Position numbers and translations under genes: made by a program
Shown: positions 13,376 to 51,003 of the stretch, piece by piece
Position numbering within the stretch: the stretch's first letter is position 1
How the letters are laid out: every line of letters begins with the position of its first letter
Notes under the pieces: generated by a model
Databases searched by the model: none
Told to the model about the DNA's origin: nothing
Seen by the model: only the letters and a program-made list of their open reading frames with translations
NCBI GenBank assembly: GCA_034002785.1
Contig: JAVEZX010000004.1
Location: forward strand, 1-57,323
Source of the DNA: Bacteroidales bacterium
GTDB taxonomy: Bacteria > Bacteroidota > Bacteroidia > Bacteroidales > VadinHA17
Direction of reading: 5' to 3'
DNA: 57,323 nt

Positions 13376-13410
13376 CGAAAAAAAAGCTGCGGAAACGCGG
13401 CTTTTTTTAT
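13376..13410. terminator. bidirectional intrinsic terminator
   Basis: A-run, AGCTGCG-GAAA-CGCGGCT hairpin (13385-13402), then T-run. Confidence 0.75.
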
Positions 13411-13411
13411 T

Positions 13412-19897: not shown

Positions 19898-19921
19898 TAA
19901 AATGCCCGGGGGGCATTTTTA
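19898..19921 (+). terminator. intrinsic terminator after murU-like gene
   Basis: AATGCCC-GGG-GGGCATT hairpin followed by TTTTT. Confidence 0.65.
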
Positions 19922-19930
19922 GCGAGCAGC

Positions 19931-20029
19931 CAGACCGCCAGACTATAGGACTTTCAGACTCTCAGATTGAGACCCCTAGGGTCGAAACCCCGTACACGAA
20001 GTGTCGGGGCCCTCAGACTCTCAGACTGA
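19931..20029. repeat. period-8 tracts CAGACCGC CAGACTAT AGGACTTT CAGACTCT CAGATTGA ... CAGACTCT CAGACTGA flanking two short hairpins
   Basis: Read directly. CAGAC recurs at 19931, 19939, 19955, 19963 (CAGAT), 20014 and 20022. Central hairpins are GACCC-CTA-GGGTC and CCCCGtACAC-GAA-GTGTCGGGG. Confidence 0.8.
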
Positions 20030-20033
20030 GCTG

Positions 20034-23508: not shown

Positions 23509-23512
23509 GCAG

Positions 23513-23622
23513 GCAGTAGGTATTATGCAATAGGCAATATTGTTGACAATGATATGCTTAGGATCAACCTGAGTGGCACTGATTTCACTACTGCCTATTG
23601 CCAATTGCCTATTGCCTAATAA
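23513..23622. repeat. period-7 tract pair: GCAGTAG GTATTAT GCAATAG GCAATAT (23513-23540) / 47-nt spacer / CTACTGC CTATTGC CAATTGC CTATTGC CTAATAA (23588-23622), inverted arms
   Basis: Read directly. GCARTAG is the reverse complement of CTAYTGC. The repeat begins a few nt after the nspC stop. Confidence 0.85.
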
Positions 23623-23648
23623 AAAAAACAGGCGGATCTCTCCGCCTG
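23620..23648 (-). terminator. intrinsic terminator for the small OMP gene
   Basis: CAGGCGGA-TCTC-TCCGCCTG hairpin with a 9-nt A-run on its left, which is a U-run in the - strand transcript. Confidence 0.7.
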
Positions 23649-23674
23649 CCTTATATTCTCTATTGTGTTCAGTC

Positions 23675-25463: not shown

Positions 25464-25553
25464 GGTGCAAAGGTAAGTCTTTAACTCAATATGTTGAAAA
25501 CTACTTCGTGCACCTTCAGTGTGATGGTACTTTTTTTTATTAATTTTCAAAAG

Positions 25554-28500
25554 ATGAATACAGCGGGTAAGTTGTTGAAATACAGTGCATCGGCAGGGTC
25601 AGGCAAGACCCATGCCCTTACTGCCTTCTACCTCTCACGGATTCTTCATGACCCTGGAGCTTACCGGCGCATACTTGCCGTCACCTTTACAAATGCCGCC
25701 GCGGCTGAGATGAAGAGCCGCATTCTGAAGCGATTGCACCTTCTTGGCCTGAATGGAGAAAAGGGTGATGATGAGAGAGGGGAGTTCACTGAATATCTCT
25801 GCCGGTTCTTTCCCGAAGTATGGCCTGACAGGCAGGCAGCCCTTCTGACTGTCAAAAAAAATGCCCCCGTGGCACTCGGCAATATCCTTCAGGACTACTC
25901 CCGCTTCACAGTAGGAACAATTGACTCATTCTTCCAGCGGGTTATCAGGGCCTTCGCACGCGAAATAGACATTCCGGCAGGGTACGAGATAGAGCTTGAG
26001 CACCAGACACTACTGTCTGACGCCGTGGACAGCCTCCTGTCACAAGTGGCAACTGACGGCAAACTGCGGGGCTGGATCTCGTCATATGTGGCTTCACGCC
26101 TCGATGAAAGCAAGGGATGGGACATCAGGCGCGAGATACTCCATGTGGCAGACCAGGTATTCAGGGAAAATTTCAGACAGCTCAGCACTGAAGACCGGAA
26201 GAAAATCAGCGATTACACAATCATGGCCAATTACGCCTCAACAGTTCATGCAATCAGACAACGGTTTGAAAATGAACTGAAAAGGATGGCCGGTGAGGCG
26301 GTAACCATTTACTCTGAGTGCGGACTTACCCCGGAAGACTTCCTGTCAAAAACAAAGGGCGGCGTTGGCGAGACGCTTAGAAAATACTCGCAGGGCGATG
26401 TCCGAAAGCCTGGTGCAACCTGGATGAAGGCTGCCGCAGAGGGAAAATACCTCGCAGCCTCCGCCGGCAAGGAAATTGTAACGGCATTCTCCGTGGCGAT
26501 GAGCAGGGGACTGGGCGAGCGGGTGACTGCCATCACGGAATGGTTTGACCGGGAGTACGGCCTTTACGTCTCAGCCCTTGCACAGATGAGGACAATACAC
26601 GTGATTGGCATCCTGGGAGCCATCAGCGAAAGGGTAAGGGAACAGGCGAACGAGCAGAACATCTTCCTCCTCTCTGATGCGGGAGAACTTATAAGCAGGC
26701 TTATTGCTGATGATGATACACCCTTTATTTACGAGAAGATCGGGGCGGCATATGACCATTTTATAATTGACGAATTCCAGGATACCTCACGCATTCAGTG
26801 GAACAACTTCAGGCCACTGATTGCCGAGACACTGTCGCGAGGCAAGGACAACCTCGTTGTTGGCGATGTCAAGCAGTCGATCTACAGATGGCGCAACAGC
26901 GACTGGCGCATCATTCACAGCGAGGCGGCCGCAGCCTTTGGACAGGAGTCGGTGAGACCGGTACATCTGAGTACAAACTACCGCAGCCGCGGGAATATAA
27001 TCGCCTTTAACAACAGCATCTTTGGCCGGGAGTCAATCCCTTCGCTCTGCGATGAGAAGCTGAATTTTGATATGCTGAAGCTGGGAGATGTCTACTCGGA
27101 TTCAGGGCAGGAGGGTACCGAGGGTAAGAAGGGGGGACTGGTGCGTGTAACCCTTTACCCCAAAAGTGAGGATGAGGGATGGAAGGAGAGGGTTCTGAAT
27201 GATCTTCCCGCGGTGATTGAGCAGATTCAGGATCACGGTTACGGAGCTGATGAGATACTTTTTCTGTGCCGCACAAATGAGGAGGGAAAGCAGATTATCA
27301 GCCGGATACTGGAGTACAGTGCAACATGTACACCTGAACAGCGTGAGCATTTCAATTATGAGATCACCTCCGGCGAGTCACTGCTGCTTGAGCGCAATCC
27401 CGCCGTCACCCTCATAATTTCCTGCCTGAGGTATCTCACTGATCCTGCAAGCCGCATCAACAGAAGCCAGATGGTGCGCTCATATATCCTTGCCACCGGA
27501 GGCGACGAGCGTCTGCTCTACAGCGGTGACGCCCCCGTGCCACAGGCAGAGTCAATGACTGCGGATACCCCGGTCCGCACCGAAGCAACCCTCCCTCAAG
27601 GCTGGGAACAGATGCTGGAGTCATACCGCAACAGCTCACTCTTCAGTGCAACCGAGAACATTATACGCTTCTTCGGCCTTGGCGAAAACAGCGAGAACAT
27701 AGCATATATAAGCTCCTTCCAGGATGCAGTGCTGACATGGTCAGGAAGACACAGCTCCGATATCTCCGCCTTTGTCCGGTGGTGGGATGATGACGGATGC
27801 ACCAGCACACTCAATCAGTCCGACAGGCAGGAGGCGATGCGGGTGATGACAATACACAGGGCCAAGGGGCTGCAGAGCCGGGTGGTGATAGTCCCCTTTG
27901 CGGCGTGGGATTTTACAAAGTCCGGCTTCAACAGGCAACTGTTGTGGGTAACCGATGTGCCACCCCCGTTTGCCCCCATGCCTGTTGTCCTGCCTGAGAT
28001 GAGCAGCAAGCTGGATGAATCTCTCTTTGCCGTCCAGGCCAGGATGGAGAAGGTGTCCGACTGGCTAGACGGTATCAACCTGCTCTACGTGGCTTTTACC
28101 AGGGCCGTGGATGCACTCTTCATTATGTCTCCGGAGGTGCAGGGTACCACGGGCAGTGGCGCCAACTCCGGCGCCCTCCTCAACCAGGCTCTTGCGAAAC
28201 TGCCGGCGAATTTCACAAGGAGGGAGACGGACTCCATGACTGTAGTTGCGTGCGGCGAGCTACCTCCTGTGGTGCGTGAAGAGCATGAACAACCACTTGA
28301 GATGAACCGCTATACAGTCAGCGAGCCGCGAGCTGCCCTCAGGCTGAGAACGGGCGGCGCCCTCCCGCAGGATGAACTGAAACTCGGCGAACCCGGCGGC
28401 CGGGCATACGGCATCATGATGCATGATCTCCTCAGCCGCATAATTACAACTGCCGATATTGAACCGGCCGTGGAGCGTGCCTGTGCCGGAGGCCTCCTTC

Positions 28501-28817
28501 CTGCAGACAGACGTAATGCAACAGTCACTCACCTGCACGAACTTCTCTCCTCTGACACCGTCCGCCCATGGTTCAACGGCAACGCAACAGTCATGACAGA
28601 GGCCTCCGTGATTCTGCCCTCGGGCGCCGCCCGCCGCCCGGACAGGGTAATGATACGCGACGGACAGGTAACAATAGTCGACTATAAATTCGGGGAGCCG
28701 TCGCCACGACACCGTCAGCAGGCAGCCGCCTACCGCGAGATACTTGCAAGGATGGGTTATGCCGGCGTAAGATCATGGCTCTGGTACGTTGAAAAAAATA
28801 TAATAGAAGAGGCATGA
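25554..28817 (+). CDS. UvrD/Rep-type helicase with C-terminal PD-(D/E)XK nuclease (AddA-like subunit)
   Basis: Walker A SAGSGKTHALT, motif II IIDEFQDTS, and C-terminal nuclease motifs RPDRV, IVDYKFG, QQAAAY. Confidence 0.85.
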   Translation: MNTAGKLLKYSASAGSGKTHALTAFYLSRILHDPGAYRRILAVTFTNAAAAEMKSRILKRLHLLGLNGEKGDDERGEFTEYLCRFFPEVWPDRQAALLTVKKNAPVALGNILQDYSRFTVGTIDSFFQRVIRAFAREIDIPAGYEIELEHQTLLSDAVDSLLSQVATDGKLRGWISSYVASRLDESKGWDIRREILHVADQVFRENFRQLSTEDRKKISDYTIMANYASTVHAIRQRFENELKRMAGEAVTIYSECGLTPEDFLSKTKGGVGETLRKYSQGDVRKPGATWMKAAAEGKYLAASAGKEIVTAFSVAMSRGLGERVTAITEWFDREYGLYVSALAQMRTIHVIGILGAISERVREQANEQNIFLLSDAGELISRLIADDDTPFIYEKIGAAYDHFIIDEFQDTSRIQWNNFRPLIAETLSRGKDNLVVGDVKQSIYRWRNSDWRIIHSEAAAAFGQESVRPVHLSTNYRSRGNIIAFNNSIFGRESIPSLCDEKLNFDMLKLGDVYSDSGQEGTEGKKGGLVRVTLYPKSEDEGWKERVLNDLPAVIEQIQDHGYGADEILFLCRTNEEGKQIISRILEYSATCTPEQREHFNYEITSGESLLLERNPAVTLIISCLRYLTDPASRINRSQMVRSYILATGGDERLLYSGDAPVPQAESMTADTPVRTEATLPQGWEQMLESYRNSSLFSATENIIRFFGLGENSENIAYISSFQDAVLTWSGRHSSDISAFVRWWDDDGCTSTLNQSDRQEAMRVMTIHRAKGLQSRVVIVPFAAWDFTKSGFNRQLLWVTDVPPPFAPMPVVLPEMSSKLDESLFAVQARMEKVSDWLDGINLLYVAFTRAVDALFIMSPEVQGTTGSGANSGALLNQALAKLPANFTRRETDSMTVVACGELPPVVREEHEQPLEMNRYTVSEPRAALRLRTGGALPQDELKLGEPGGRAYGIMMHDLLSRIITTADIEPAVERACAGGLLPADRRNATVTHLHELLSSDTVRPWFNGNATVMTEASVILPSGAARRPDRVMIRDGQVTIVDYKFGEPSPRHRQQAAAYREILARMGYAGVRSWLWYVEKNIIEEA

Positions 28818-29773
28818 CCGCTCCTGTAACATATGATTGGGGGACAACCCGTCGATTCAATTCCTATGCCGACTGGTTTGCCAGGCTGTTCGGGGGCAGG
28901 GTGCAGAAGGTGAGCATCAACGCAGGCTTCACCTGCCCCAACCGTGACGGCACCCTGGGCACCGGGGGATGCACCTACTGCAACAACGAGGCATTCATCC
29001 CTGCATACTGCACACCTGAGAAAAGCGTCACCGAACAGATTGAACAGGGCATCGCCTTCCACCGGCACAGATACCGCCGGGCTGATCAGTATATTGCATA
29101 TTTCCAGGCCTATACAAACACCTATGCCGGTACGGAGAAACTTATCGGCCTCTATGGCCAGGCACTCAACCACCCTTCGGTGACGGGAATAGTCATTGGC
29201 ACCCGACCCGACTGCGTCAGCACAGACCTGCTTGACAGGCTGGCTGTGATGGCACGCGACTACTTCATCATGATCGAATACGGCATCGAATCAGTACATG
29301 ACGATATATTGAAGAGGATAAACAGGGGACATGATTATGCCTCGGCAGAGAAAGCTGTCCGTGAGACTGCGGCACGCGGCCTGAATGTGGGCGCTCATCT
29401 GATATTCGGCCTTCCGGGAGAGACGCGTAACATGCTGGAAGAGAGTGCTGAAATCATATCTTCCCTGCCGCTTACATCCATAAAAATAAGGCAGCTTCAG
29501 CTGATCAGGGGTACTGCCATGGCCGAAGAATACAAAATAAATCCCGATGCATTTGAACTCTTCTCCCTCGATGAGTACCTTGACCTGGTGATCTCATTTA
29601 CAGAGAGACTGTCACCGGGAATAATGATTGACCGTATCAGCGGTGAGGCACCGCCGCGCCTGCTGGATGACCCGCGCGACTGGCACATGCGGAGCAATGA
29701 AATATTCAGACTCTTTGAGCAGAGACTGGGGGAAAGAGACACATGGCAGGGGAGACTCTGTACAAAACGCTGA
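28814..29773 (+). CDS. radical SAM protein, TIGR01212 (YhcC-like) family
   Basis: Family-specific cluster box FTCPNRDGTLGTGGCTYCN and a TIM-like radical SAM core. An ATGA overlap joins it to the AddA-like stop. Confidence 0.8.
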   Translation: MTAPVTYDWGTTRRFNSYADWFARLFGGRVQKVSINAGFTCPNRDGTLGTGGCTYCNNEAFIPAYCTPEKSVTEQIEQGIAFHRHRYRRADQYIAYFQAYTNTYAGTEKLIGLYGQALNHPSVTGIVIGTRPDCVSTDLLDRLAVMARDYFIMIEYGIESVHDDILKRINRGHDYASAEKAVRETAARGLNVGAHLIFGLPGETRNMLEESAEIISSLPLTSIKIRQLQLIRGTAMAEEYKINPDAFELFSLDEYLDLVISFTERLSPGIMIDRISGEAPPRLLDDPRDWHMRSNEIFRLFEQRLGERDTWQGRLCTKR

Positions 29774-29775
29774 AG

Positions 29776-32646
29776 ATGGATTTCCTGGAAAGAGTGGCAT
29801 ACAGACTCCGTGAGCAGCACGGTGACGAGATGGAAAAGCAGACGGTGGTACTGCCCAGCAGGAGGGCCGGCCTCTGGCTCACCCGCTCACTGGCAAGACT
29901 GGGAGATAAACCCGTCTGGTCACCCACTATGTTGACTGTCAGTGAGTTGTTCAGATCATTCACAGATCTTGTCCCGGCAGACGCAGACACTCAGATATTC
30001 GGGCTCTACAATGTCTGGCGGAGACTGTTCGGGGAGGATATGAGTTTCGACGATTTCTGGTCATGGGGCGAGGTGATTATCAATGACTTCAATGATATCG
30101 ATCTTTATATGGCCGATGCGGGTAAGCTGTACAGCAATATCTCGGACCTGAAGGAGATCGATGCAGCCTTTGGCGGGCTTACCGATGAACAGGTTGAGAT
30201 TATAAGGGGTTTCTGGAAATCGTTTAACCCTGCATCAGCAGACAGTGATGCCCGCACAAAATTCCGCACTGTATGGCAGAAGCTGGGACCTCTCTACAAC
30301 GCCTTCAGGGAGTCAATGCTGGCTCGCGGCATGGCCGGTGACGGCATGCTGTGCCGGGAGGTGGCGGAGAAGGCCGCAGCCGGGCGGCTCATGCTGCCTG
30401 AAGGGAGACGTTGGCATATTGTCGGGCTGAATGCCCTCAACAACTGTGAGAAGATTCTTTTCAGATATCTCAGGCAGCAGGGAGTGGCTGACTTCTATTG
30501 GGATGATGACCACTTCTTCATGGATGACCCGGATCACAAGGCCTCTCTGTTTATCAGTGAGAACAGACGGATATTCGGGAATGCAATCGGCCTTGCCGAC
30601 GGCGGGAAGCATGAACCGCCCCGCGGTGACTGGCAGATAATTGATACCCCGTCAGATACCGCACAGGCGCGGATGGTTGCACAACTGCTTGAAAAGGAAA
30701 ATATTACTGACGATGAGGACCTGACATCCACTGCAGTCATCCTCGCAGATGAGAAGCTGCTCATGCCTGTACTGGGCTCACTGCCGGCATCGGTGCAGGA
30801 TGTGAATGTTACAATGGGACACCCTTTCCGGCTGACATCACTGTACTCCTTCCTGAAGCAGTTGCTTGCCCTGATCAGATCAGCCAGGGAGAGCAACGGA
30901 ATCGTAAGTTTCCGCAGTGATGATGTAATGGCACTGCTCAGGCATCAGTATTTCAGACTTCTCGCCGGCGGAGAAGGAGACACGGTGGTAAGGGAGATCA
31001 TCAGGGGCAACATGATCAGGGTCAGTGCATCGATGCTCTCCGAACGTTTCAGTCTGAAAAAGCTCTTTTCGGTGCCGTCAACAGGTTCAGAAATACCAGG
31101 ACACCTGGCTGAGGTAATGGAGCTTCTCGAGGAGGCTACGTTCTCTGCGGAGAGAGATGGTGCCACGCTTAGTGTCGACCGTGAGTACCTCAGGATTGCA
31201 ATGAACAGTACCGTTCGCCTTGCGAACCTGATCAGCAGTCATAACCTTGAGCTGAAACCTGAAACATGTATAAGGCTGCTTGACAGGATCTTCAGAAAAA
31301 TGATTGTCCCATTCTCGGGAGAACCTCTCAGGGGGATACAGATTATGGGTGTCCTCGAAACAAGGGCGCTGGAATTCAGGAATATCATAGTCCTTTCCCT
31401 CAATGAGGGTATCTTCCCGGGTGCATCGTGGGACAATTCGTACATCCCGTATAATATCCGCCGGGCATTCGGCCTGCCGACCGTTAACGAGCACGAATCG
31501 ATCTACTCATACTACTTCTTCAGGCTTCTGCGCAAGCCTGCCAGGGGATGGTTCATGTACAACTCCACGGCACAGGGACTCAGCAGCGGGGAGATGAGCC
31601 GCTACCTCGTCAGAATGAGCTACAGCCCTCTCTTTGCTCCGCGACAGAGGTCAGTGCATATCAGGGTGGGGAGGAGCAGGATGATGTCTGAATCGCTGCC
31701 TCGGCAACCGGAGCATAACAGGACCCTTCTGAACCTCTACTCCGGTGATGGCGGGGCAGGCAAGTCCTTGTCGCCGAGCGCGGTGAACACCTGGATAAAC
31801 TGCAGGATGAGATTCTATTTCAGGTACGTCTGCGGCATGCCCGAGGAGGAGATACTGGAGAAGGAGATCGACCAGCGCAGGTTTGGAAATATAATGCATG
31901 AGACACTGCGCCGTCTCTACGAACCCCTGCGGAATTCACAGGATACCGGAGCCTCTGTCGCCAGGCTGGCAACCGAACGTGACACCATCAGGGAGACTGT
32001 GATCGGTGCTGCAACGGATGAAATGCACTGGGACAGGGAGACGCTGTTTTCGGGAAAAGGGGTTATAATCGTCGACGTTCTTGAACGGTATGCAATTGAA
32101 CTGCTGGAATATGACGGTAGAAATCCCGACCTGACCCTGCTTCACCTCGAGGACGACTTCACCTCCGTCCGCACCGTGACCACGGGGAAAGGTGAAGTGA
32201 TTGTGCGCCTTGGAGGCAGGGCCGACAGGGTTGACATGACCGGAGGTGTTATAAGGGTGGTCGATTACAAGACAGGTTCCCCGAAGCGGGAGGCTGTCAC
32301 GGCTGAAGGGCTTTTTGACGAGGTGAAGGAGAAACGCAATGATGCAGTGCTTCAGGCTCTGCTCTACTGTTTAATGGTGGAGAGAAACCATCCCGGACGG
32401 ATCGTTTTGCCTGCCATATACTGGATACAGCAGCTGAAGTCGGACGGATTCACACCGTATGCATCTGCCCCGGGCCTTGAAGGTACAGACGCACTGCGCG
32501 GTGAATGGGATGCTTTTATGAAAGCTTTCACGCAGGAGCTTGACCTGACTCTGCAAAGGATCTTTTCTGACAGTGAGGACTTTACAAAGACAACCTTCAG
32601 GCAGCGCTGCTCCTCATGCCCCTACAGGACACTGTGCCGGAGATGA
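29776..32646 (+). CDS. PD-(D/E)XK nuclease family protein (AddB-like subunit with Fe-S cysteine staple)
   Basis: Nuclease motifs GRADRVD, VVDYKTG, LQALLY. Cysteines INCRMRF...VCG plus C-terminal CSSCPYRTLC match the AddB C..CxxCx5C pattern. The start is either ATG 29776 or ATG 29743. Confidence 0.75.
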   Translation: MDFLERVAYRLREQHGDEMEKQTVVLPSRRAGLWLTRSLARLGDKPVWSPTMLTVSELFRSFTDLVPADADTQIFGLYNVWRRLFGEDMSFDDFWSWGEVIINDFNDIDLYMADAGKLYSNISDLKEIDAAFGGLTDEQVEIIRGFWKSFNPASADSDARTKFRTVWQKLGPLYNAFRESMLARGMAGDGMLCREVAEKAAAGRLMLPEGRRWHIVGLNALNNCEKILFRYLRQQGVADFYWDDDHFFMDDPDHKASLFISENRRIFGNAIGLADGGKHEPPRGDWQIIDTPSDTAQARMVAQLLEKENITDDEDLTSTAVILADEKLLMPVLGSLPASVQDVNVTMGHPFRLTSLYSFLKQLLALIRSARESNGIVSFRSDDVMALLRHQYFRLLAGGEGDTVVREIIRGNMIRVSASMLSERFSLKKLFSVPSTGSEIPGHLAEVMELLEEATFSAERDGATLSVDREYLRIAMNSTVRLANLISSHNLELKPETCIRLLDRIFRKMIVPFSGEPLRGIQIMGVLETRALEFRNIIVLSLNEGIFPGASWDNSYIPYNIRRAFGLPTVNEHESIYSYYFFRLLRKPARGWFMYNSTAQGLSSGEMSRYLVRMSYSPLFAPRQRSVHIRVGRSRMMSESLPRQPEHNRTLLNLYSGDGGAGKSLSPSAVNTWINCRMRFYFRYVCGMPEEEILEKEIDQRRFGNIMHETLRRLYEPLRNSQDTGASVARLATERDTIRETVIGAATDEMHWDRETLFSGKGVIIVDVLERYAIELLEYDGRNPDLTLLHLEDDFTSVRTVTTGKGEVIVRLGGRADRVDMTGGVIRVVDYKTGSPKREAVTAEGLFDEVKEKRNDAVLQALLYCLMVERNHPGRIVLPAIYWIQQLKSDGFTPYASAPGLEGTDALRGEWDAFMKAFTQELDLTLQRIFSDSEDFTKTTFRQRCSSCPYRTLCRR

Positions 32647-35116: not shown

Positions 35117-35407
35117 ATGCGGCGAAACAAAACCATAACACTCGGCGAAGCGCTCAATGACCTCATCAGGGAATACCGGCTGGGGCCCGGGCTGAAGGAA
35201 GCTACCGTTCTCGGCATCTGGGAATCCATTGCCGGGAAGGTAATCACCGCACGAACCAAGAAAACATACCTTAAGGATGGTGTGCTGCACATATACCTCA
35301 CCTCATCGGTAGTGCGAAATGAGCTGATGATGCTGCGTGATTCCCTCAAGGCTCAGATCAACAGCCGGGCGGGAGAAGAGGTCGTCAGGGAGATAATGCT
35401 TCATTGA
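35117..35407 (+). CDS. DUF721 (DciA-like) domain protein
   Basis: 96 aa, basic, immediately after recF as is usual in Bacteroidota, with an LGEALNDLIREY..W..IAG pattern. Confidence 0.65.
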   Translation: MRRNKTITLGEALNDLIREYRLGPGLKEATVLGIWESIAGKVITARTKKTYLKDGVLHIYLTSSVVRNELMMLRDSLKAQINSRAGEEVVREIMLH

Positions 35408-35468
35408 CGGCGCGATAGCCCGGTCAGACTGCCGGCTCACAACATCTTTATCCGGTCATAGTCCTCTC

Positions 35469-43026: not shown

Positions 43027-43140
43027 TTTTTTACGGACACAATTTAACCAATAAAATCGCTTGCTGTTTATTAATGGAATGTGTTGTGCAATAGAGACAG
43101 GGTCCGGGGGGGGCGCGGGCGGGGGACCTCCCTTCTACAA

Positions 43141-43280
43141 TGCCTGATGGCCTACAGCCATCTGCCATGCGTTGCCAACACTACTGCCTTCCCGATCCGC
43201 CAACTGGCGGATGCGGGATTGAGCCTCCTCCTGCGTCTGAGGCTCAAATTGGCTATTGCCTACTGCCTATTGCCTGAATT
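43141..43280. repeat. composite repeat: degenerate period-7 tract (TGCCTGA TGGCCTA CAGCCAT CTGCCAT ...), two hairpins, then CTATTGC CTACTGC CTATTGC CTGAATT
   Basis: Read directly. The right tract (43253-43280) uses the same unit and orientation as 23588-23622 and supplies the last codons and stop of the methyltransferase ORF. Hairpins lie at 43195-43212 and 43219-43247. Confidence 0.75.
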
Positions 43281-45240: not shown

Positions 45241-48015
45241 ATGTGCAGCTTTAGGTTTCGGTTTTTCCCTGTTTTTTTCATCCTCTGTCTGACAGCCTCC
45301 GGCCAGTCGCTTCAAAATATCGGAGTTGTCAGGGAGAACGGCGCTGCCGCAGTCGCTCTCATCCTCGATGACAGCACACGGACTAACCTCATGGCGCCCA
45401 GGCCCATTTTCAGTTTCAGACTTGACGGTGTCAGCCTGGAGTCTGACGATGTGCCGGCGGGTCTCATCGGCAGCCGCTTCCTGATGGTCTTTGCCGGCGG
45501 CGCCGAAGCCTCCTATACACCCCGCGGTGGCTCACACCCGGGATTCATGGCTGAACTGACCCTGCGAAACAACTGGAATGATACCATCACCGTCAGCGAT
45601 GTAGTGCCCTTCGGCGAAAAGAACAATGATGCCTTCATAACCGGTGCGGGACCCCGCGACCTTGCCCGTGCATACCTCAACCTGCCGGGGAAGAGCCCGG
45701 TACGCGTCATCCTGCCCGATAACGCCTGGGAGATGGGATTCAGCACCTTCAAAGCCCAGGGTGATCTGTCGGTAGCCGCCATCGCAAGGCGAATCAAAAC
45801 TGACAACGGCACGGCAAGAAGATACGAAACAATCCTCCCCCCCGGAGCCTCTGTGACTTACCACATCTATGCCGACCTCTTCAGGGGCGACTGGCAGCAG
45901 GGCCTGAAGCTTATGTTCGCAGAGCGATGGCTCTATGATCTGTCACGGTTCGATGAGACTCTCTATGAGCGGGAAGACCTGAAGTGGATACGCACATCCT
46001 ACCTGATGATACTGCAGATGGCATGGGACAGGGAATATCACAATCGCCTCACCGGTGATGAGGGATTTACTGATTACCTTGGTCAGTATAACCGGCTCTT
46101 CGGACATGTTGATGTATGGGGCATCTGGCCCACATGGCCCCGCCTCGGCCTCGACGACCGCAATCAGTGGGATCTGTATCGCGATCTGCCCGGAGGAACC
46201 GCCGGCCTCAGACAACTGGGCCGGGAAGCAAGGACTGACGGATGCAGGTTCTTCATAGCCTATAACCCGTGGGATAAAAGCACCCGTCCTGAAGACCATC
46301 TTCGCGGGATGGCGCAGATAATAGCTGAAACGGAAGCCGACGGCGTAGTGCTCGACACAGAGGGCAGCTCCTCGGCAGAACTGCAGGGAGCCGCGGATAC
46401 GGTTCGCAGCGGAGTGGTGATGTATTCCGAGGGTATGCCTGTTGTTAAGGATATGCCCGGTATAGTGGCAGCCAGGGTCCATAATGCACTGTTCCTCAGT
46501 CCGGAACTTAACCTGAACAAGCTTATCAGACCTGATTTTGCAATCTTCAGGGTGGCCGACGTCGGCGAAGATATCCTCCACCGCGAGATCTCCGTCGCCT
46601 TCTTCAACGGCTACGGCACCGAGCTTAATATGTTCAGACCCGGAGGCAGGGGAGAAGATTTCAGGAAGGATCTGGGATACCTGGCAAAAACAACCTATAT
46701 CCTGCGAAGAAACAGCGATGCATTTGCCGGCACAAACTGGACCCCACTGGTGCAAAGCGGCGCTGACAGGGTCTATGTTAACAGCTGGAACGCCGGGGAG
46801 AAGAAGATTTATACCGTGCTGAACATGGACCACCGTGGTTACAGCGGTCCCCTCTTCAGCCCGGGTGATACCGTGGGAAAACACCTTGTCTCACTCTGGA
46901 GACATGAGGAGATTAATCCGTCTGTCGTCAACGGAACCCTAATGGCTCCTGTGGAAACCCCGGGCTGGAGCCAGATGTTCAACGGCACCAGGCGCGAGAG
47001 CTCTATAGACTGCATAGCGTTGCTGCCACGATTGATCACAGCTGAGTTCAGGGGTAACAGGATACGGATTGCTGCAGAGGTAAGCGGCACACTGCTTATA
47101 AGCAGCGGAGAGCCCGGTTATGACAGACCTCCTGTCAGGATTACAGCTCCGGCAGACACCCTCCTTAGTTCCGACACACTGCTGGGAATTGAAGGGGATA
47201 AGATAGTGATCGAGCTGACTGACGCCGATGGAATACTGCTCGATGAAAGCGTCGTCAGGCCCGGAACCGGACGTCCCTGGCTGGTGTCTGAGACGAAACG
47301 CACCGCTCCGGCAGTTGATATACCTTCGGGAATGGTGCTTATACCCTCTGCCGTTATTGAATACCACCTCAGCTCTGCAGATGAGTTCGTGCCGTATCCT
47401 TCAGGTGGTGAAGTAATTACGGCCTCACCTGACAGTTTCCTGATAGACAGGTACCCCGTGACAAACGAAGAATTCCTTCAGTTTATAAGGGCTTCCGGAT
47501 ATATCCCGTCAGATACTTCCAACTATCTAAGGCACTGGGAACAGGGACTGCCGGTCACCGGTCAGGAACGCTATCCGGTGGTCTGGATAAGCCTCGAGGA
47601 TGCCAGGGCATACGCCCGCTGGGCAGGCAAGCGTCTCCCCACTGAATCGGAGTGGCAACTTGCGGCACAGGGTACCGATGGCAGGGAGTGGCCCTGGGGT
47701 GATGAGTTTCATGCGACCAAATGCAACAACGGATTTGGCAGACCGACACCTGTGGATGCCTTTCCCAAAGGGGAGAGTCCCTACGGGGTGGCAGACCTGG
47801 TAGGCAATGTCTGGCAGATGACAAACGATGTCTATAGTAACGGAGCTTACTATTTCAATATAATCAGGGGAGGCAGCTGGTTCCGCCCGGAATCAAGCTG
47901 GTGGTACGTTCGTGGCGGCCCTCAGCCGCTCTCAATGACACAGATGCAGCTCCTCGTCTCACCGGGCTATGACCGCAGCGCTACAGTCGGATTCCGCTGC
48001 CTAAAGGATTTATGA
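45241..48015 (+). CDS. secreted 924-aa protein: uncharacterised ~640-aa N-terminal region plus C-terminal FGE-sulfatase (SUMF1-type) domain
   Basis: Signal peptide. The C-terminus reads DRYPVTNEEFLQFI.., YPVVWISLEDARAYARWAGKRLPTESEWQLAAQG, WPWGDEF, VADLVGNVWQMTND, IRGGSW. Confidence 0.75.
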   Translation: MCSFRFRFFPVFFILCLTASGQSLQNIGVVRENGAAAVALILDDSTRTNLMAPRPIFSFRLDGVSLESDDVPAGLIGSRFLMVFAGGAEASYTPRGGSHPGFMAELTLRNNWNDTITVSDVVPFGEKNNDAFITGAGPRDLARAYLNLPGKSPVRVILPDNAWEMGFSTFKAQGDLSVAAIARRIKTDNGTARRYETILPPGASVTYHIYADLFRGDWQQGLKLMFAERWLYDLSRFDETLYEREDLKWIRTSYLMILQMAWDREYHNRLTGDEGFTDYLGQYNRLFGHVDVWGIWPTWPRLGLDDRNQWDLYRDLPGGTAGLRQLGREARTDGCRFFIAYNPWDKSTRPEDHLRGMAQIIAETEADGVVLDTEGSSSAELQGAADTVRSGVVMYSEGMPVVKDMPGIVAARVHNALFLSPELNLNKLIRPDFAIFRVADVGEDILHREISVAFFNGYGTELNMFRPGGRGEDFRKDLGYLAKTTYILRRNSDAFAGTNWTPLVQSGADRVYVNSWNAGEKKIYTVLNMDHRGYSGPLFSPGDTVGKHLVSLWRHEEINPSVVNGTLMAPVETPGWSQMFNGTRRESSIDCIALLPRLITAEFRGNRIRIAAEVSGTLLISSGEPGYDRPPVRITAPADTLLSSDTLLGIEGDKIVIELTDADGILLDESVVRPGTGRPWLVSETKRTAPAVDIPSGMVLIPSAVIEYHLSSADEFVPYPSGGEVITASPDSFLIDRYPVTNEEFLQFIRASGYIPSDTSNYLRHWEQGLPVTGQERYPVVWISLEDARAYARWAGKRLPTESEWQLAAQGTDGREWPWGDEFHATKCNNGFGRPTPVDAFPKGESPYGVADLVGNVWQMTNDVYSNGAYYFNIIRGGSWFRPESSWWYVRGGPQPLSMTQMQLLVSPGYDRSATVGFRCLKDL

Positions 48016-48086
48016 TTTGCGATTTGCGAGTTGAAGAATAAATCGCAATTCGCAACTCGCAACTCGCAATTCGCAATTCGCAACTC
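48016..48086. repeat. period-7 tract pair: TTTGCGA TTTGCGA GTTG / spacer / TCGCAAT TCGCAAC TCGCAAC TCGCAAT TCGCAAT TCGCAAC (inverted arms)
   Basis: Read directly. It fills the whole gap between two convergent stop codons. Confidence 0.9.
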
Positions 48087-49253
48087 TCATATCCTCCTTG
48101 CTCCATCGCCGATGCCGGGCAGGTAGAATTCAGCCGTCAGGCCTGTCTTTGCGGTGTAAACCTCACCCAGCTTCCGGATGAACTCATCGGTATGCCTGTT
48201 TTCTACTATCGAGACCGTGCATCCACCGAATCCGGCCCCGGTCATCCTGGTACCCACAACACCAGGAAGCTTCCTTCCCTCATACACCAGGGTGTCAAGC
48301 TCCGTACCCGTCACTTCATAATCTGTGCAGAGCGAATCATGAGACTCGTTCATAAGCTTGCCCAGCAGGCTTATATCATTGTTTTGAAGTGCCTTTATGG
48401 CATCCAGCGTCCGGCCGTTCTCGGTGATGACATGCTTCGCCCTCTTCCGTACCACGGGATCCGGAATGTAGCTGTCAAGCATCCAAAGGTCAGCCACTGA
48501 CAGTTCACTGAGGTTCTTTATGGGTCGGTGTTCAGAGATGAGCGCCACAGCCCTCTCGCACTCTGACCGCCGCTCATTGTACTTGCTGTCAGTCAGCCCC
48601 CTGCGCTTATTGGTGTTGGTGATCACCAGACGCCTGTCGCCCAGGTTCAGCGGGGCATACCTGTATTCAAGAGTGTCACAGTTAAGGTTGATTGCATGAT
48701 CCTTTCTTCCGAACCCGACAGCAAACTGATCCATGATGCCGCAATTCATCCCCACAAACCCGTTCTCGGCCTTCTGGGCCATCCTGACCATCTCCATCAT
48801 CTCCAGGCCTGACTCCGTAAGCTCATTAATTGCTACGGCCGTAACCATCTCAATAGACGCAGATGATGAGAGTCCCGCACCGTTTGGGATGTCACCCATG
48901 AAGAGCATCTCCATTCCGGGTGCTCTGATTCCCTTGCGGGCAAACTCGTTGACAACCCCAACCGGGTAATTGGTCCAGCTCTTCGGAACAGGCAGGTAAT
49001 TGAGCGCAATGGGAATGATTACCTCGCCGGGAAAGTTGAGGCTGTTCATCAGCATCTCCTGCCTGCCTGTCTTGCGGACCAGCAGTGTGGTCCCGAAATC
49101 CAGTGCACAGGGAAAAACATATCCGCCATTGTAGTCGGTGTGCTCACCAATCAGGTTTACCCTTCCGGGTGAATAAAAAAGGACAGGCTCTTTGTCCCTG
49201 TCCCCGTATAACCTGAAAAATTCTTCCTTCAGATAGTTTGTGTCAGCTTTCAT
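48087..49253 (-). CDS. galK: galactokinase
   Basis: GHMP kinase with the galactokinase signature GRVNLIGEHTDYNGG and PNGAGLSSSAS. Confidence 0.93.
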   Translation of the reverse strand: MKADTNYLKEEFFRLYGDRDKEPVLFYSPGRVNLIGEHTDYNGGYVFPCALDFGTTLLVRKTGRQEMLMNSLNFPGEVIIPIALNYLPVPKSWTNYPVGVVNEFARKGIRAPGMEMLFMGDIPNGAGLSSSASIEMVTAVAINELTESGLEMMEMVRMAQKAENGFVGMNCGIMDQFAVGFGRKDHAINLNCDTLEYRYAPLNLGDRRLVITNTNKRRGLTDSKYNERRSECERAVALISEHRPIKNLSELSVADLWMLDSYIPDPVVRKRAKHVITENGRTLDAIKALQNNDISLLGKLMNESHDSLCTDYEVTGTELDTLVYEGRKLPGVVGTRMTGAGFGGCTVSIVENRHTDEFIRKLGEVYTAKTGLTAEFYLPGIGDGARRI

Positions 49254-50680
49254 ACCTTGAGCTTTTTCTCTATTTCCAAAATCTGGCTCCTGAAATGCCG
49301 GTCAGTATCAATCAGGTTGTTTACGGTCTTGCAGGCATGAAGCACGGTTGCGTGATCCTTGCCCCCGATGGATGAGCCGATACTTGCAAGCGAAGCCTTT
49401 GTCAGGCTCTTCGAGAAATACATCGAGACCTGCCGTGCCTGAACTATCTCCCGCTTTCGGGTCTTCCCCTGCATCTGATCCACGGGTATCTTGTAGTACT
49501 CGCAGACAACCTTCTGGATATAGTCAATTGTGATCTCCCGGCGCTGGGTGTTCACCAGCCTGTCCACCATCTGGCGGGCAAGCTCGAGAGTTACCTCCTT
49601 GCGATTGAGAGTCGATTGCGCATAAAGCGAAATGAGGCCCGATTCAAGCTCCCTTATGTTCGAGGAGATATTCTCCGCCAGGAACTCGAAGATCTCGTCC
49701 GGCAGCTCGATACCGTCATTGTACGCCTTCTTCCTGAGAATGGCAAGCCTGGTCTCGAAATCGGGCTTCTGCAGGTCAGCCAGCAGTCCCCATTTGAACC
49801 TCGACAGGAGCCGCTGCTCCATCCCCTGAAGCTCCACCGGGGGCTTGTCACAGGTGAGTATCAACTGCTTGCCCGACTGATGGAGATGATTGAAAATGTG
49901 AAAGAATGTATCCTGGGTCTTCTCCTTCCCTGCAAATTCATGGACATCGTCAATGATCAGGACGTCAATCATCTGGTAGAAATGGAGAAAATCGTTTTTG
50001 TTGTTGTTGCGGATCGACTCCACAAACTGGGTCTGGAATTTATTCGCGTTAACGTAAAGCACTGTCTTGTCCGGGAACTTCTCCTTTACCAGGATGCCAA
50101 TGGCCTGAACCAGGTGAGTCTTACCAAGTCCGGAATCACCGTAGATCATCAGGGGGTTAAAGGCGGTGCCGCCGGGATTGTTGCCCACTGCAATACCTGC
50201 TGAACGGGCAAGACGGTTGCATTCACCCTCGACGAAATTGGAAAAGGAGTAGTCAGGATTGAGCCTCGGATCAAAATGAAGCTTCTTTATTCCCGGTATA
50301 ATGAAAGGATTCCTGATGGCAGGCTGTGTCACCTCAAAAGGTACCTGCATCGGCTTGTTCTGAAGGTCTGACTTGTTTCTCGACGGATACCTGACAGTGT
50401 AGGGCTTGCCGTTTGCGTAGCCTGAGTTCTCCATGATGATTGTGTACTCAAGCTTGGCATCATTGCCTATCTCCCTCCTGAGTGTCTTGCGGAGGATATC
50501 TATGTACTGCTCTTCAAGGTATTCATAAAAGAAAGGGCTGGGCACCTGTATTGTAAGTATGTTCTTTTCGAGCCTGAGAGGAACAATTGGCTCGAACCAT
50601 GTTTTAAAGCTGGCCGATGGAATAATGTCACGAATTATTTCCAGACAGTTATTCCAAACCTCATCGTGTGACTTGTTCAT
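49250..50680 (-). CDS. dnaA: chromosomal replication initiator protein DnaA
   Basis: 476 aa with AAA+ Walker A YGDSGLGKTHL, LIIDDVH, and the C-terminal DnaA-box-binding domain (..IVQARQVSMYF...SLASIG...DHATVLHA). Confidence 0.95.
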   Translation of the reverse strand: MNKSHDEVWNNCLEIIRDIIPSASFKTWFEPIVPLRLEKNILTIQVPSPFFYEYLEEQYIDILRKTLRREIGNDAKLEYTIIMENSGYANGKPYTVRYPSRNKSDLQNKPMQVPFEVTQPAIRNPFIIPGIKKLHFDPRLNPDYSFSNFVEGECNRLARSAGIAVGNNPGGTAFNPLMIYGDSGLGKTHLVQAIGILVKEKFPDKTVLYVNANKFQTQFVESIRNNNKNDFLHFYQMIDVLIIDDVHEFAGKEKTQDTFFHIFNHLHQSGKQLILTCDKPPVELQGMEQRLLSRFKWGLLADLQKPDFETRLAILRKKAYNDGIELPDEIFEFLAENISSNIRELESGLISLYAQSTLNRKEVTLELARQMVDRLVNTQRREITIDYIQKVVCEYYKIPVDQMQGKTRKREIVQARQVSMYFSKSLTKASLASIGSSIGGKDHATVLHACKTVNNLIDTDRHFRSQILEIEKKLKV

Positions 50681-51003
50681 TCAGATTGAAATTAAAAAAC
50701 TCTTTTTTTTCGTCGGTGCTGAAAGCCGTGACAATATTTGTAAAAAAAAAGGTTAAAAAAAAATATTTTTGCTCTTGACTTTTACATTTATTCTTTACTG
50801 TGATGACCTTCAGGTCCTTAAAGTGAAAAACATTGGTCAAAATTTATAATATGCAGATATTCAATAATATACGATGAAGAGTATGGACTACAGTCCTTTA
50901 TAAAATTGAAGATATTCCGGTCCTGAACTGCCAAGTTTGGGAAACCTCTGTCAGGAGGCTTGCAACCGGGTGATCCAGTATTGTTTAGTATTATTCTAAC
51001 AAA
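50681..51003. other. AT-rich non-coding region upstream of dnaA (dnaA promoter and possible oriC or DNA-unwinding segment)
   Basis: 323 nt with no credible ORF. It has long A/T runs (GTAAAAAAAAAGGTTAAAAAAAAATATTTTTG) and short inverted repeats GACCT-TC-AGGTC and GGACT-AC-AGTCC. I saw no TTATCCACA-type box. Confidence 0.35.

Follow-up and report, generated by a model that had tools for sequence, protein, structure and literature searches.

Stop-codon-adjacent heptanucleotide arrays between convergent genes of a Bacteroidales bacterium and their putative role as 3' RNA hairpins

In an uncultured Bacteroidales lineage from digesters and activated sludge, the galactokinase gene galK converges with a gene for a protein carrying an FGE-sulfatase domain, and the space between their stop codons is filled by an inverted pair of heptamer repeats. 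The locus raises the question of what kind of element this is, how it came to lie exactly between two stop codons and what it may do for the transcripts that end there. Heptamer repeats are over-represented in bacteria, and their origin and function are not understood (PMC4692102, PMC4679880, bioRxiv 10.1101/2022.06.06.494920). We analyzed the whole stretch of 57,323 nt that contains the locus (the window) together with related contigs. The reading that we favor, at a probability of about 60%, is that the gap holds a heptanucleotide SSR of the STRR or long SSR class, in which two complementary arrays, driven by slippage, fill the convergent 3' space and would act as a hairpin at the 3' end of the RNA.

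The focal gap (48016-48086, 71 nt) is bounded exactly by the stop codons of the two convergent genes. Re-reading the window sequence reproduced to the letter the coordinates and sequence reported in an earlier note on this DNA, and its description of the flanks as an FGE-domain gene and galK in convergent orientation was borne out by gene and domain assignment (Table 1). The six units at 48043-48084, TCGCAAY when given for the + strand, correspond to (A/G)TTGCGA on the - strand and form the G-rich, stop-proximal arm of the galK transcript; they are followed by TC and then by the galK stop TCA at 48087-48089 (- strand). TRF describes the focal array with a period of 7, 5.9 copies and 94% matches. 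The note had correctly remarked that a period of 7 matches neither a multiple of the codon length nor the helical repeat; it is the typical period of the heptanucleotide repeat class.

Table 1. Positions of the parts of the focal gap, of its flanking genes and of the other array loci in the window.
Feature	Position	Strand	Remark
FGE-domain gene, 924-aa protein, C-terminal FGE-sulfatase domain	45241-48015	+	convergent with galK
Last codons and stop of FGE-domain gene, GAT TTA TGA	48007-48015	+	
Stop TGA of FGE-domain gene	48013-48015	+	
G-rich arm TTTGCGA TTTGCGA GTTG, 2.5 units	48016-48033	+	sense strand of FGE-domain gene
AT-rich 9-nt spacer AAGAATAAA	48034-48042		hairpin loop in innermost register
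Six heptamers TCGCAAT TCGCAAC TCGCAAC TCGCAAT TCGCAAT TCGCAAC	48043-48084	-	
galK terminal heptamer including stop, GATATGA on - strand	48087-48093	-	
galK, galactokinase, 388 aa	48087-49253	-	overlaps dnaA upstream
TTTGCGA TGTGCGA TTTGCGA, loop, TCGCACA TCGCAAA TCACAAA	4243-4298	+	3' UTR of lepB (peptidase S26)
Degenerate TTTGTGA/TTGTGAA, then TCGCAAA x4 (- strand reading)	10470-10512	-	3' UTR of Orn/DAP decarboxylase gene
TTTGCGA x3 arm, loop, degenerate TCGNNCA arm	13409-13473	-	3' UTR of GH3/beta-lactamase gene
Direct arrays AGTCTGAG/GTCTG(A/G)N, period 7-8, around central GC hairpin	19923-20033	-	3' UTR of corA
Inverted pair GGCAATA/GGCAGTA, 43-nt spacer, TATTGCC/TACTGCC	23509-23622	+	unit unlike TTGCGAN family
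Direct arrays AGGCAAT/AGGCAGT around two GC hairpins	43141-43280	-	TP_methylase gene end

When the window was scanned for tandem tracts with periods of 4-12, four tracts had period 7 and each other period gave none. The motif TTGCGANTTGCGA, with up to one mismatch, has 16 matches, all within four window loci, compared with 0.31 expected from 100 dinucleotide shuffles. All seven array loci that had been counted in 57 kb are present, six of them in convergent gaps; the sole locus in a tandem gap, 43141-43280, extends over the TP_methylase stop codon at 43253-43255, with its arrays recurring ~90 nt downstream. The TTGCGAN unit is used at four loci, and three unit families coexist in the window. 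The inverted architecture turned out to be less general than the earlier note had proposed. Among the three further loci assigned the focal unit and architecture, those at 4243 and 13412 do have inverted arms, whereas the one at 10471 has a degenerate second arm (TTTGTGA/TTGTGAA); among the three tracts with other units that were described as architecturally equivalent, the one at 23513 is inverted, whereas those at 19931 and 43141 are direct arrays that flank GC hairpins. Inverted arms are thus borne out at 4243, 13412, 23513 and 48016. The 19931 locus has a period of 8 in part. Different loci share a composite arrangement in which GGCAGTA arrays are followed by GTAGTGA... and that in turn by CGCAGGAC/CAGAC arrays. 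An exact-protein look-up for the Orn/DAP decarboxylase whose 3' UTR holds the array at 10470-10512 returned no match.

With heptanucleotide long SSRs and STRR-type repeats these arrays share tandem 7-nt units, dispersal in non-coding DNA and polymorphism by whole units. Heptamer over-representation has reportedly been known since 1990 for STRRs and since 2007 for long SSRs, and the STRRs of heterocystous cyanobacteria, which Mazel and colleagues are said to have described in 1990, have the units CCCCAGT, TTGGTCA and CAACAGT. These three units are absent here and the host belongs to the Bacteroidales, so the focal arrays are not STRRs in the strict sense. The earlier note overlooked that heptanucleotide tandem repeats have already been described, as STRRs, long SSRs, Xanthomonas GGGAATC repeats and repeats of Nostoc trnL P6b. 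Much of the novelty, which the note had made dependent on there being no named family, is thereby removed.

Nostoc PCC 7120 has ATTGCGA among its listed dispersed repeats (PMC2408588), and ATTGCGAATTG are dispersed there with 79 and 26 copies (PMC2408588, Table 3). Our pattern scan for TTGCGAN-type arrays found at least 119 loci from many phyla, with Nostoc loci, but none from the species of the window, among the matches listed. According to Rehm et al. (2015, PMC4692102), heptameric repeats with the units GGGAATC in Xanthomonas and GGGGA(C/T)T in Nostoc occupy many intergenic loci; the Xanthomonas heptamers overlap stop codons or lie within 50 bp of them, their G-rich strand is the coding strand, and 70-75 of ~185 loci consist of inverted pairs with the potential to fold into stem-loops. 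The article also reports that the Xanthomonas repeats are transcribed and that their length and sequence differ between sister species at the same gene pair. As described there, the Xanthomonas and Nostoc units contain G-runs and were studied as G-quadruplex formers, and the Nostoc intergenic arrays are mostly single and direct with few inverted pairs, whereas the focal units have no G-runs and belong to a Bacteroidales host with several unrelated unit families per genome; the stop-codon register and likeness and the multi-register pairing seen here are not described in the part of that article available to us. In the P6b stem of the Nostoc tRNA-Leu(UAA) intron both sides consist of complementary heptamers (TDNGATT or NNTGAGT), with 7-nt indels on either side and repeat classes that replaced one another repeatedly (PMC4476775). 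P6b lies within a group I intron of another phylum, whereas the focal arrays lie in 3' UTRs.

Direct TAACTGA repeats have been described in Beggiatoaceae, cyanobacteria and five Bacteroidetes, with polymerase slippage as the proposed origin, and other heptamer arrays share intergenic regions in Gramella and Aequorivita (MacGregor, 2015, PMC4679880). Among the 5-11-nt long SSRs, heptamers are the commonest class (Mrazek et al., 2007, cited in PMC4679880). TAACTGA and the focal arrays are alike in being intergenic heptamer tandem repeats with a unit common to distant phyla. They differ in placement and orientation: TAACTGA arrays stand mainly immediately 5' of start codons, share one orientation and include a single indirect repeat (PMC4679880), whereas arrays of the focal type are 3' and mostly inverted pairs. 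For such arrays in Bacteroidales our literature search found MacGregor (2015) alone, with other units and 5' positions.

The earlier note was right in separating the arrays from REP, ERIC, MITE and CRISPR elements. The arrays consist of contiguous 7-nt units that vary in number and sequence. In Enterobacteria and Pseudomonas, REP, BIME and REPIN elements are found outside genes, often in the space between convergent genes or behind stop codons. REPs have a single conserved palindromic unit of ~35 nt with a GT(A/G)G head, are mobilized by RAYT transposases and are transcribed into 3' UTRs as hairpins that stabilize the upstream mRNA. This group is ruled out by the tandem heptamer arms, which contain no conserved palindromic unit of ~20-40 nt; no RAYT (IS200/IS605-like Y1) transposase domain was found among the 30 window proteins scanned. 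As an analogy, REP/BIME/REPIN elements offer the best functional comparison, from which the focal arrays differ in having no conserved unit and in arms of tandem heptamers that appear to grow in place from the stop-codon heptamer. A MITE was rejected, since filled sites set against empty ones reveal no duplication and the array ends grade into the stop codon and into the A-run of the terminator. CRISPR was rejected since it needs repeats of 23-47 nt with unique spacers of similar length and the units here are contiguous heptamers. Rfam at gathering score returned two tRNAs alone for the whole window, and at E<=1 the focal region gave sub-threshold matches to eukaryotic miRNA hairpins (28 bits compared with a gathering score of 79).

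Among relatives the unit sequence turns over freely, and the period of 7, the complementarity of the arms and the position are kept. The focal array has six units in the window and nine in strain L001, with flanks 98.96% identical; L222 and L223 are 99.6% identical, yet one focal-gap unit differs in identity, and further alleles occur in L224, in L221, in which essentially one arm is present, and in the nearly empty L220. Comparing copy number between strains, as the earlier note had proposed, thus gave a difference at the focal gap and also at 13409-13473, where the other arm has three copies in L212 and seven in L213. Whole arrays differ as well: the 4243-4298 site is empty in the relatives L201, L203 and L212, the rplT-lepB gap has two empty and four different filled alleles at flank identities of 91-97%, and at 10470-10512 another array family stands in place of the window array in L212 (genomes roughly 92-94% identical). 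In L211 (93% identical) the arms at 23509-23622 differ and the spacer is conserved, so that the arms diverge faster than the spacer. Arrays that gain, lose and swap their units as wholes, 7 nt at a time, carry the signature of strand slippage and unequal exchange. The suggestion of a slippage-prone minisatellite is therefore directly supported, by six compared with nine units at 99% identity and by the empty and filled alleles.

An assembly artefact was rejected, since identical arrays are present in independent assemblies (the window, L205 and L206) and related arrays in ENA, JGI, NCBI and Logan records of different projects; the tracts, of about 20-75 nt, are presumably short compared with typical sequencing reads. 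In the related contig L127 the array has a stretch of N within it.

At the galK gap the turnover can be followed over larger distances. An automatic scan of 33 orthologous galK gaps (GalK identity 72-95%) detected arrays in at least 23 of them, and in ~30 related metagenome contigs the architecture is kept with at least nine unit families, replacement units including CAGTCGG, GTAGGCA, GGTCTGA, GGGTTGA, GGTACAA and GAGTCAT. The unit already differs in a strain with 95% identical GalK. Replacement of the unit under a constant architecture argues against a sequence-specific binding site, a role that the earlier note had considered. If a sequence-specific protein bound the RNA or DNA of the array, one protomer per 7 nt, this would suit the regular spacing and the presence of TTGCGAN at four window loci and in many phyla, and PMC4679880 cites a report that CspB binds one heptamer per protein. 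We give this explanation almost no credence, as orthologous gaps keep their architecture with unrelated units and three unit families are found within the window itself.

The galK-gap arrays are closely tied to the stop codons. The FGE-domain gene ends in heptamer register with its array (GATTTAT GATTTGC GATTTGC, the first unit being degenerate), and on the galK side the GANTTGC units continue the register of the terminal heptamer GATATGA; relatives have GATTTGA in place of this heptamer, followed by GATTTGA and GATTTGC copies. At 13 of 34 loci the terminal heptamer has at most two mismatches to the next unit (for example GATTTGA before GATTTGA GATTTGA GATTTGC, TGACTGA before GGTCTGA, GTATTAG before GCAGTAG, and GTTATGA before GTTATGA GTCATGA), compared with 2 of 34 in a coding control. 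Register and likeness to the local stop-codon heptamer extend over four different families in the galK gap. Permutation gave p = 0.0005 for the galK side and 0.009 for the FGE side, values that are optimistic because related loci are phylogenetically non-independent. At 4243, 10471 and 13412 a comparison by eye gave 4-6 mismatches in 7 positions between terminal heptamer and unit, so that the anchoring result rests on the galK gap. There, an array that resembles the stop-codon heptamer and is in register with it points to birth in place or homogenization and not to insertion, which argues for galK-gap arrays that arise from the stop-codon heptamer or homogenize with it.

These observations bear on the idea of a mobile element, MITE-like or REPIN-like, that inserts beside terminators and has its transposase encoded elsewhere in the genome. 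The clean empty and filled alleles, the use of one unit (TTGCGAN) at four loci in 57 kb, the family replacement at 10470-10512 between genomes roughly 92-94% identical and the recurring composite of GGCAGTA, GTAGTGA... and CGCAGGAC/CAGAC arrays would all fit such an element. It is scarcely plausible, however, since the arrays have no full-length consensus, target-site duplication or fixed termini, arm lengths vary by single units, no transposase domain was found among the 30 window proteins scanned, and a match to the local stop-codon heptamer in four families is unexpected from insertion.

In the window and two relatives nearly all arrays sit in convergent gaps or 3' UTRs, as a rule with a stop codon on one side and a canonical terminator on the other. 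They occupy six of the nine convergent gaps of the window and one of its ~8 tandem gaps, and no divergent gap holds one. A count of tracts gave 36 in convergent gaps, one in a tandem gap and one in 429 kb of coding sequence, and with database gene calls the arrays of L212 and L213 are restricted to convergent gaps. All loci lie downstream of stop codons and touch the last few codons at most, which sets them apart from phase-variation (contingency) SSRs, whose copy number switches expression from within a promoter, 5' UTR or reading frame. On the sense strand, the stop-proximal half has more G than C in 39 arrays compared with 8; for TTGCGAN arrays in other phyla the polarity is 25 compared with 19, based on crude ORF calls that are unreliable in high-GC genomes.

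A terminator hairpin adjoins the arrays at five of the seven window loci, the number given in the earlier note, with support that differs between sites. The terminator scan confirmed 4299-4326, a bidirectional terminator directly 3' of the array at 4243-4298, 10438-10469, which follows the 10470-10512 array in - strand order, and 23625-23652, which follows the pair at 23509-23622. The site at 13379-13408, which follows the 13409-13473 array and also ends two tRNA-Leu genes, stood as a 13-nt inverted repeat with A/T runs, whereas the scan did not flag the short hairpin near 19903-19920. Arrays are thus not needed for termination at these loci, and the rplT-lepB site does without them in some relatives. 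Gaps that hold a terminator have their arrays on one side, within the 3' UTR of one gene, and not centered. This position counts against action at the level of DNA, by which cruciform or slipped structures, or binding of topoisomerase or nucleoid proteins, would relieve or insulate positive supercoiling between convergent genes. BIMEs, which bind gyrase and IHF, are the basis of this analogy, and the strong restriction to convergent gaps and the long, nearly perfect arms agree with it. It is highly unlikely, given that several loci are direct or single-armed and that no conserved sequence is present for a binding protein to read.

Transcribed as the end of an mRNA, the two arms would pair into a long, imperfect stem-loop that follows the stop codon directly. 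Folding of the focal gap gave -30.9 kcal/mol (z -5.0) for the + strand and -31.1 kcal/mol (z -3.4) for the - strand, with significance taken from shuffle z-scores, and z was <= -3 in 14 of 20 orthologous gaps. The focal arms can pair in five registers, 7 nt apart, so the stem-loop would survive changes in copy number. Variable unit positions often mismatch; at the focal locus each unit contributes one U.U or U.C. The variant pair TGTGCGA/TCGCACA is present in both arms in three strains; because L207 and L211 break this pattern we do not claim covariation, and no clear compensatory changes between the arms were found in the compared strains. The terminator scan of 48016-48086 detected no terminator-like site: the focal hairpin has no U-tract but is followed 3' by AUCAUAAAUCC or CUCUCAUAUCC, and therefore differs from a canonical intrinsic terminator with GC stem and U-tract.

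Since the arms fold well in both transcripts and sit in 3' UTRs, a 3'-end stabilizer or convergent-transcription insulator, as the earlier note had put forward, is possible. From the sequence we infer a role as a 3' RNA hairpin, as stabilizer or as termination aid. The most likely effect would be that of a REP-like 3' structure protecting the mRNA against 3' exonucleases; in the focal gap, which has no canonical terminator, the stem-loop would also help to stop or insulate the two converging transcripts.

The serious rival to this RNA role, although rather unlikely in our view, is a neutral or selfish by-product, in which slippage-born arrays persist wherever they disrupt nothing, that is in promoter-free convergent space, and bring the cell no benefit. 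Enrichment in convergent gaps is equally expected of neutral or selfish DNA, promoter-bearing gaps have no arrays, and the G over C bias of the sense strand could reflect transcription-associated mutation bias. Presence/absence polymorphism at one site, arrays beside fully canonical terminators, fast turnover with no convincing compensatory substitutions seen, and array ends of which one merges into the stop codon and the other into the terminator A-run also agree with it. Inversion would then come about because each gene seeds its own sense-oriented array, or by template switching within the palindrome. Against a mere by-product, the galK gap is still occupied across many species despite the changed unit family, the arms of most gaps are complementary far beyond chance, and the array hairpin is the sole structure at the focal gap to end two converging transcripts.

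A bolder form of the hairpin reading takes the stop-anchored heptamer hairpins to be a selected, self-renewing and bidirectional transcript-end structure that is independent of a U-tract and would serve as terminator, insulator or 3' stabilizer, and in its stronger version a dedicated activity with a 7-nt step would generate the arrays. Slippage would keep pace with mutation in restoring the stem, with any register shifted by 7 nt able to pair, and given the matches in other phyla the role might extend through the Bacteroidales and perhaps more widely. We consider this quite unlikely. Either version, if true, would explain why 7 is the favored period of long SSRs in bacteria.

The preferred reading, slippage-driven heptanucleotide arrays with a putative 3' hairpin role, adds a Bacteroidales lineage to the heptamer class, in which the phenomenon is unusually clean: it is confined to 3' ends, mostly forms paired hairpins and stands in stop-codon register. 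The turnover visible at the galK gap across dozens of public contigs amounts to a natural experiment on the birth, homogenization and loss of arrays, and the arrays could serve as strain markers. They alter C-terminal codons and the choice of stop codon, and they can shift predicted gene ends.

Direct reading of the 71 nt that separate the FGE-domain gene (TGA at 48013-48015) from the galK stop codon (48087-48089, - strand) gave a first arm of TTTGCGA TTTGCGA GTTG followed by AAGAATAAA, and a second arm of TCGCAAT TCGCAAC TCGCAAC TCGCAAT TCGCAAT TCGCAAC followed by TC, identical in sequence and coordinates to the description in the earlier note. Tandem Repeats Finder assigned this focal array a period of 7, 5.9 copies and 94% matches. 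The window was scanned with one relative threshold applied to every period from 4 to 12, which yielded four tracts of period 7 and none of any other period. Allowing up to one mismatch, TTGCGANTTGCGA has 16 matches in the window versus 0.31 expected from dinucleotide shuffles, all of them at four loci (table). The flanking genes encode an FGE-sulfatase-domain protein and galactokinase, and no terminator-like site was found in the focal gap. The upstream end of galK overlaps dnaA by 4 nt (49250-51003 region). The dnaA product has 476 aa, the AT-rich non-coding stretch upstream of dnaA is a possible replication origin, and a DciA-family gene lies 14 kb from the dnaA region.

Array loci and other features of the window
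Positions	Feature	Arms	TTGCGANTTGCGA matches	Canonical terminator
4243	rplT-lepB gap, convergent	inverted	4244-4296	4299-4326
10471	decarboxylase gene, convergent gap	stop-proximal arm degenerate only	10470-10496	10438-10469
13412	GH3/beta-lactamase gene, convergent gap	inverted	13444-13470	13379-13408
19931	corA, convergent gap	direct
23513	convergent gap	inverted		23625-23652
43141-43280	3' end of TP_methylase gene, tandem gap	direct
48016-48086	focal gap, convergent	inverted	48017-48083
13195-13374	two tandem tRNA-Leu genes
25491-32646	AddAB-like pair
35117-35407	DciA-family gene
43100-43130	G-rich run
43253-43280	AGGCAAT/AGGCAGT array
50681-51003	323-nt AT-rich non-coding stretch

The focal array varies between strains. 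An independent ENA contig (L001) with an identical GalK and 98.96% identity over 5.3 kb has nine units versus six in the window; short arm and loop are the same. Contigs whose GalK proteins belong to the same 90% cluster as that of the window (L220-L224) were also compared. At 99.6% identity, L222 and L223 differ in a single unit, GATTTGC in one and GAAGTGC in the other, and L224 shows a different unit mixture again. L221 has six G-arm units and a second arm that is nearly missing, and the galK gap of L220 is just 12 nt long with one GATTTGC. The proposal of a slippage-prone minisatellite is borne out by this variation in whole units. An assembly artefact is excluded, since independent assemblies agree.

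The window was surveyed using the gene map, Pfam assignments and sequence reading. Period-7 or period-7/8 arrays occupy six of the nine convergent gaps, in line with the count of six in the earlier note. The sole array locus in a tandem gap overlaps the stop codon of the TP_methylase gene, and none of the divergent (promoter) gaps of the window contains arrays. Two of the three array-free convergent gaps have ordinary GC hairpins; in the third (35408-35468) no clear structure was seen. The claim that three further loci are equivalent in architecture is valid only in part: the arms at 23513 are inverted, but the arrays at 19931 and 43141 are direct and lie on either side of GC hairpins. At the terminator-bearing loci the arrays sit between one gene's stop codon and the terminator, and therefore within the 3' UTR, and the C/A-rich arm continues directly into the terminator A-run.

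Some further features of the window were recorded. The AGGCAAT/AGGCAGT array runs across the end of the TP_methylase ORF, taking in its final codons and TAG stop, and thus specifies the C-terminal residues. The G-rich run GGGTCCGGGGGGGGCGCGGGCGGGGGACC, just downstream of these arrays in the gap upstream of a 1028-aa BNR/Sortilin-repeat gene, has a sequence that might form a G-quadruplex or an unusual hairpin. Both tRNA-Leu genes (anticodons CAG and GAG, mutual identity 80%) and the GH3/beta-lactamase fusion gene have the bidirectional terminator at 13379-13408 in common. The AddAB-like pair encodes a UvrD-helicase/PD-(D/E)XK protein (1108 aa) and a PD-(D/E)XK protein (967 aa), with a radical-SAM gene between them and overlapping ORF ends. 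The presence of DUF3575 and of a long S26 signal peptidase is consistent with Bacteroidota, and proteins that match the L20 and DnaA of the window at 90% identity or more carry the name "Bacteroidales bacterium" in NCBI MAG records.

The other loci were compared using 16 contigs that carry the exact L20 protein. The rplT-lepB gap equals the window sequence exactly in L205 and L206, differs in unit numbers and variants in L202, L204, L207 and L208/L210, and contains only the terminator (gap 31-33 nt) in L201/L212 and L203, whose flanks are about 88-94% identical. The TCGCAAA arm at the GH3 gene has three copies in L212 versus seven in L213; in the window the perfect arm of this locus is the other one. 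At the decarboxylase locus two TCGCAAA units are retained in L213; the L212 gap spans 187 nt, and its GGCAGT-type and CGCAGGAC/CAGAC arrays are followed by the same terminator as in the window. At the 23513 locus of L211 (93% identical) the arms differ unit-wise and the 43-nt spacer is almost unaltered. A composite array order was found at different genes and genomes (L212 4052-4238; L123 4167-4400; window 19923-20033 and 23509-23622), running from GGCAGTA-type units to GTAGTGA with an AT-rich stretch and on to CGCAGGAC/GACTGCAG units, which grade into (T/C)TCAGAC. This order reflects either a preferred mutation path along the array or blocks copied between loci.

A metagenome scan with GalK gave 80 loci (GalK identity 61-95%); the related contigs stem from activated-sludge and fermentation metagenomes. 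Of the 33 loci whose GalK identity is 72% or higher, at least 23 have period-7 tracts downstream of galK by automatic detection, and about 27 by eye. The heptamer unit varies among these orthologous gaps: TTGCGAN, CAGTCGG with GACTGRA (already at 95% GalK identity), GTAGGCA/GCAGTAG, GATTGTC, GGTCTGA with TTCAGAC, GGGTTGA with TTTCAAC, GGTACAA, GAGTCAT and further ones at more distant loci. The lack of unit conservation makes an array of binding sites for a sequence-specific protein, also considered in the earlier note, unlikely. Over 415 kb of galK loci, strict tracts numbered 27 for period 7, five for period 8 and 0-1 for each other period. With a relaxed threshold, the 10 kb of convergent gaps contained 36 tracts, against one in 19 kb of tandem gaps and one in 429 kb of coding sequence; these counts are biased because the galK gap is present in every locus sampled. 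In L212 and L213, according to database gene calls, arrays are confined to convergent gaps. L151 (4170-4215) and L150 are without GC-containing arrays, yet their gaps hold an AT-rich period-7/8 repeat (TTCTTAA TTCTTAT TTTCTTAA TTCTTAA); the periodic process may thus be able to work from whatever seed is present locally. In L127 a run of N lies inside a heptamer array (~4230-4240) where the near-twin L126 has TCGCAAA units; evidently, heptamer arrays can break or blur assemblies.

The last seven bases of galK including the stop, read in heptamer register, resemble the downstream units. GATTTGA is followed by GATTTGA GATTTGA GATTTGC in L222 and by three GATTTGC in L131, TGACTGA by GGTCTGA in L140-L146 and L152, GTATTAG by GCAGTAG in L125, and GTTATGA by GTTATGA GTCATGA in L153; in L134 the array itself provides the stop codon. 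The distance between stop heptamer and unit is at most 2/7 at 13 of 34 loci; the coding heptamer just before it, used as control, comes this close at 2 of 34. When gene ends were re-paired with arrays by shuffling among loci, the similarity had p = 0.0005 next to galK and p = 0.009 next to the FGE gene, values that are optimistic because the loci are related. At the conserved FGE-side C-terminus (...GFRC-x-x-DL*), codon choice follows the adjacent unit, with GAT TTA TGA beside TTTGCGA, CTG TGA beside TTTGTGA (L126) and CTG TAG beside TCTAAAG (L141, L143). This similarity on both sides argues that the stop-codon heptamer gave rise to the galK-gap arrays or was homogenised with them, which would account for the exact filling of the gap. 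No such stop-heptamer similarity was evident by eye at the remaining loci of the window. A MITE- or REPIN-like mobile element is unlikely, because the stop-codon register is hard to square with insertion and fixed ends are lacking. In L128, L132, L134 and L137 the arrays make the galK ORF 4-21 nt longer. Read on the nearer gene's sense strand, 39 arrays have more G than C and eight have less, some of the latter being second arms given to the wrong gene by the midpoint rule. At every window locus the stop-proximal array is, by eye, the G-rich version; for TTGCGAN arrays in other phyla, a crude polarity test counted 25 vs 19.

The focal region folds as + strand RNA with -30.9 kcal/mol (z -5.0; 0/200 shuffles as good) and as - strand RNA with -31.1 kcal/mol (z -3.4); the best - strand structure makes up only 3% of the ensemble. 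A repeat search found five alternative pairings (arm distances 7, 12, 19, 26 and 33 nt), so that every part of the long arm is available as a partner for the short arm. The focal stems contain a single mismatch in each unit. Among the orthologous galK gaps folded, z was -3 or lower in 14 of 20 (mononucleotide shuffles). At the DNA level, the comparisons show that the arrays undergo unit-wise slippage and unit-sequence turnover, arise in place at the stop codon in the galK gap, and are confined to promoter-free 3' space. At the RNA level, we infer from position and folding a role as a multi-register stem-loop at the mRNA end, which would resemble that of REP elements; in the focal gap the array stem-loop would be the sole structure between two converging transcripts. 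A serious rival is that the arrays are a neutral by-product, because empty alleles occur, canonical terminators co-occur with arrays, some loci have direct or single-armed arrays, and clear compensatory change between arms was not seen.

The pattern TTGCGANTTGCGANTTGCGA occurs at at least 119 loci of a species-representative genome collection; the matches listed include Nostocales, Planctomycetota, Acidobacteriota, Verrucomicrobiota, Chloroflexota and CPR groups, and also several Bacteroidales/Rikenellaceae MAGs. These TTGCGAN arrays of three or more units (L002-L120) span many bacterial phyla and one archaeal MAG and often adjoin arrays of other heptamers (for example in L008, L024, L028, L030, L037 and L044). 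Inverted pairs like the focal one were seen in Bacteroidales (L003, L014, L017, L022) and in L006, L037 and L045. Heptanucleotides are the commonest class of long SSRs, with polymerase slippage suggested as their origin (Mrazek et al., 2007, as summarised in PMC4679880 and PMC4692102). Rehm et al. described for Xanthomonas 186 GGGAATC-type arrays, 70-75 of them as inverted pairs, which are transcribed and differ in length and sequence between two species (PMC4692102). In the Nostoc tRNA-Leu intron, the P6b stem consists of complementary heptamers and can grow or shrink by 7-nt units on each of its sides, and one repeat class repeatedly supplanted the other (PMC4476775); Nostoc PCC 7120 has ATTGCGAATTG among its listed dispersed repeats (PMC2408588, Table 3). 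MacGregor described TAACTGA arrays, mainly upstream of start codons, in Beggiatoaceae, cyanobacteria and five Bacteroidetes (PMC4679880), and promoter-proximal heptamer repeats alter reporter expression in Nostoc, with no mechanism given (preprint, 10.1101/2022.06.06.494920). No published description of 3'-anchored heptamer hairpins in Bacteroidales was found in the literature searched. The feature is real and well-defined and belongs to the known class of bacterial heptanucleotide repeats, within which the host lineage and the units are new. Stop-codon anchoring, multi-register pairing and an architecture kept without its sequence may be of use in tackling the long-standing question of why such repeats exist.
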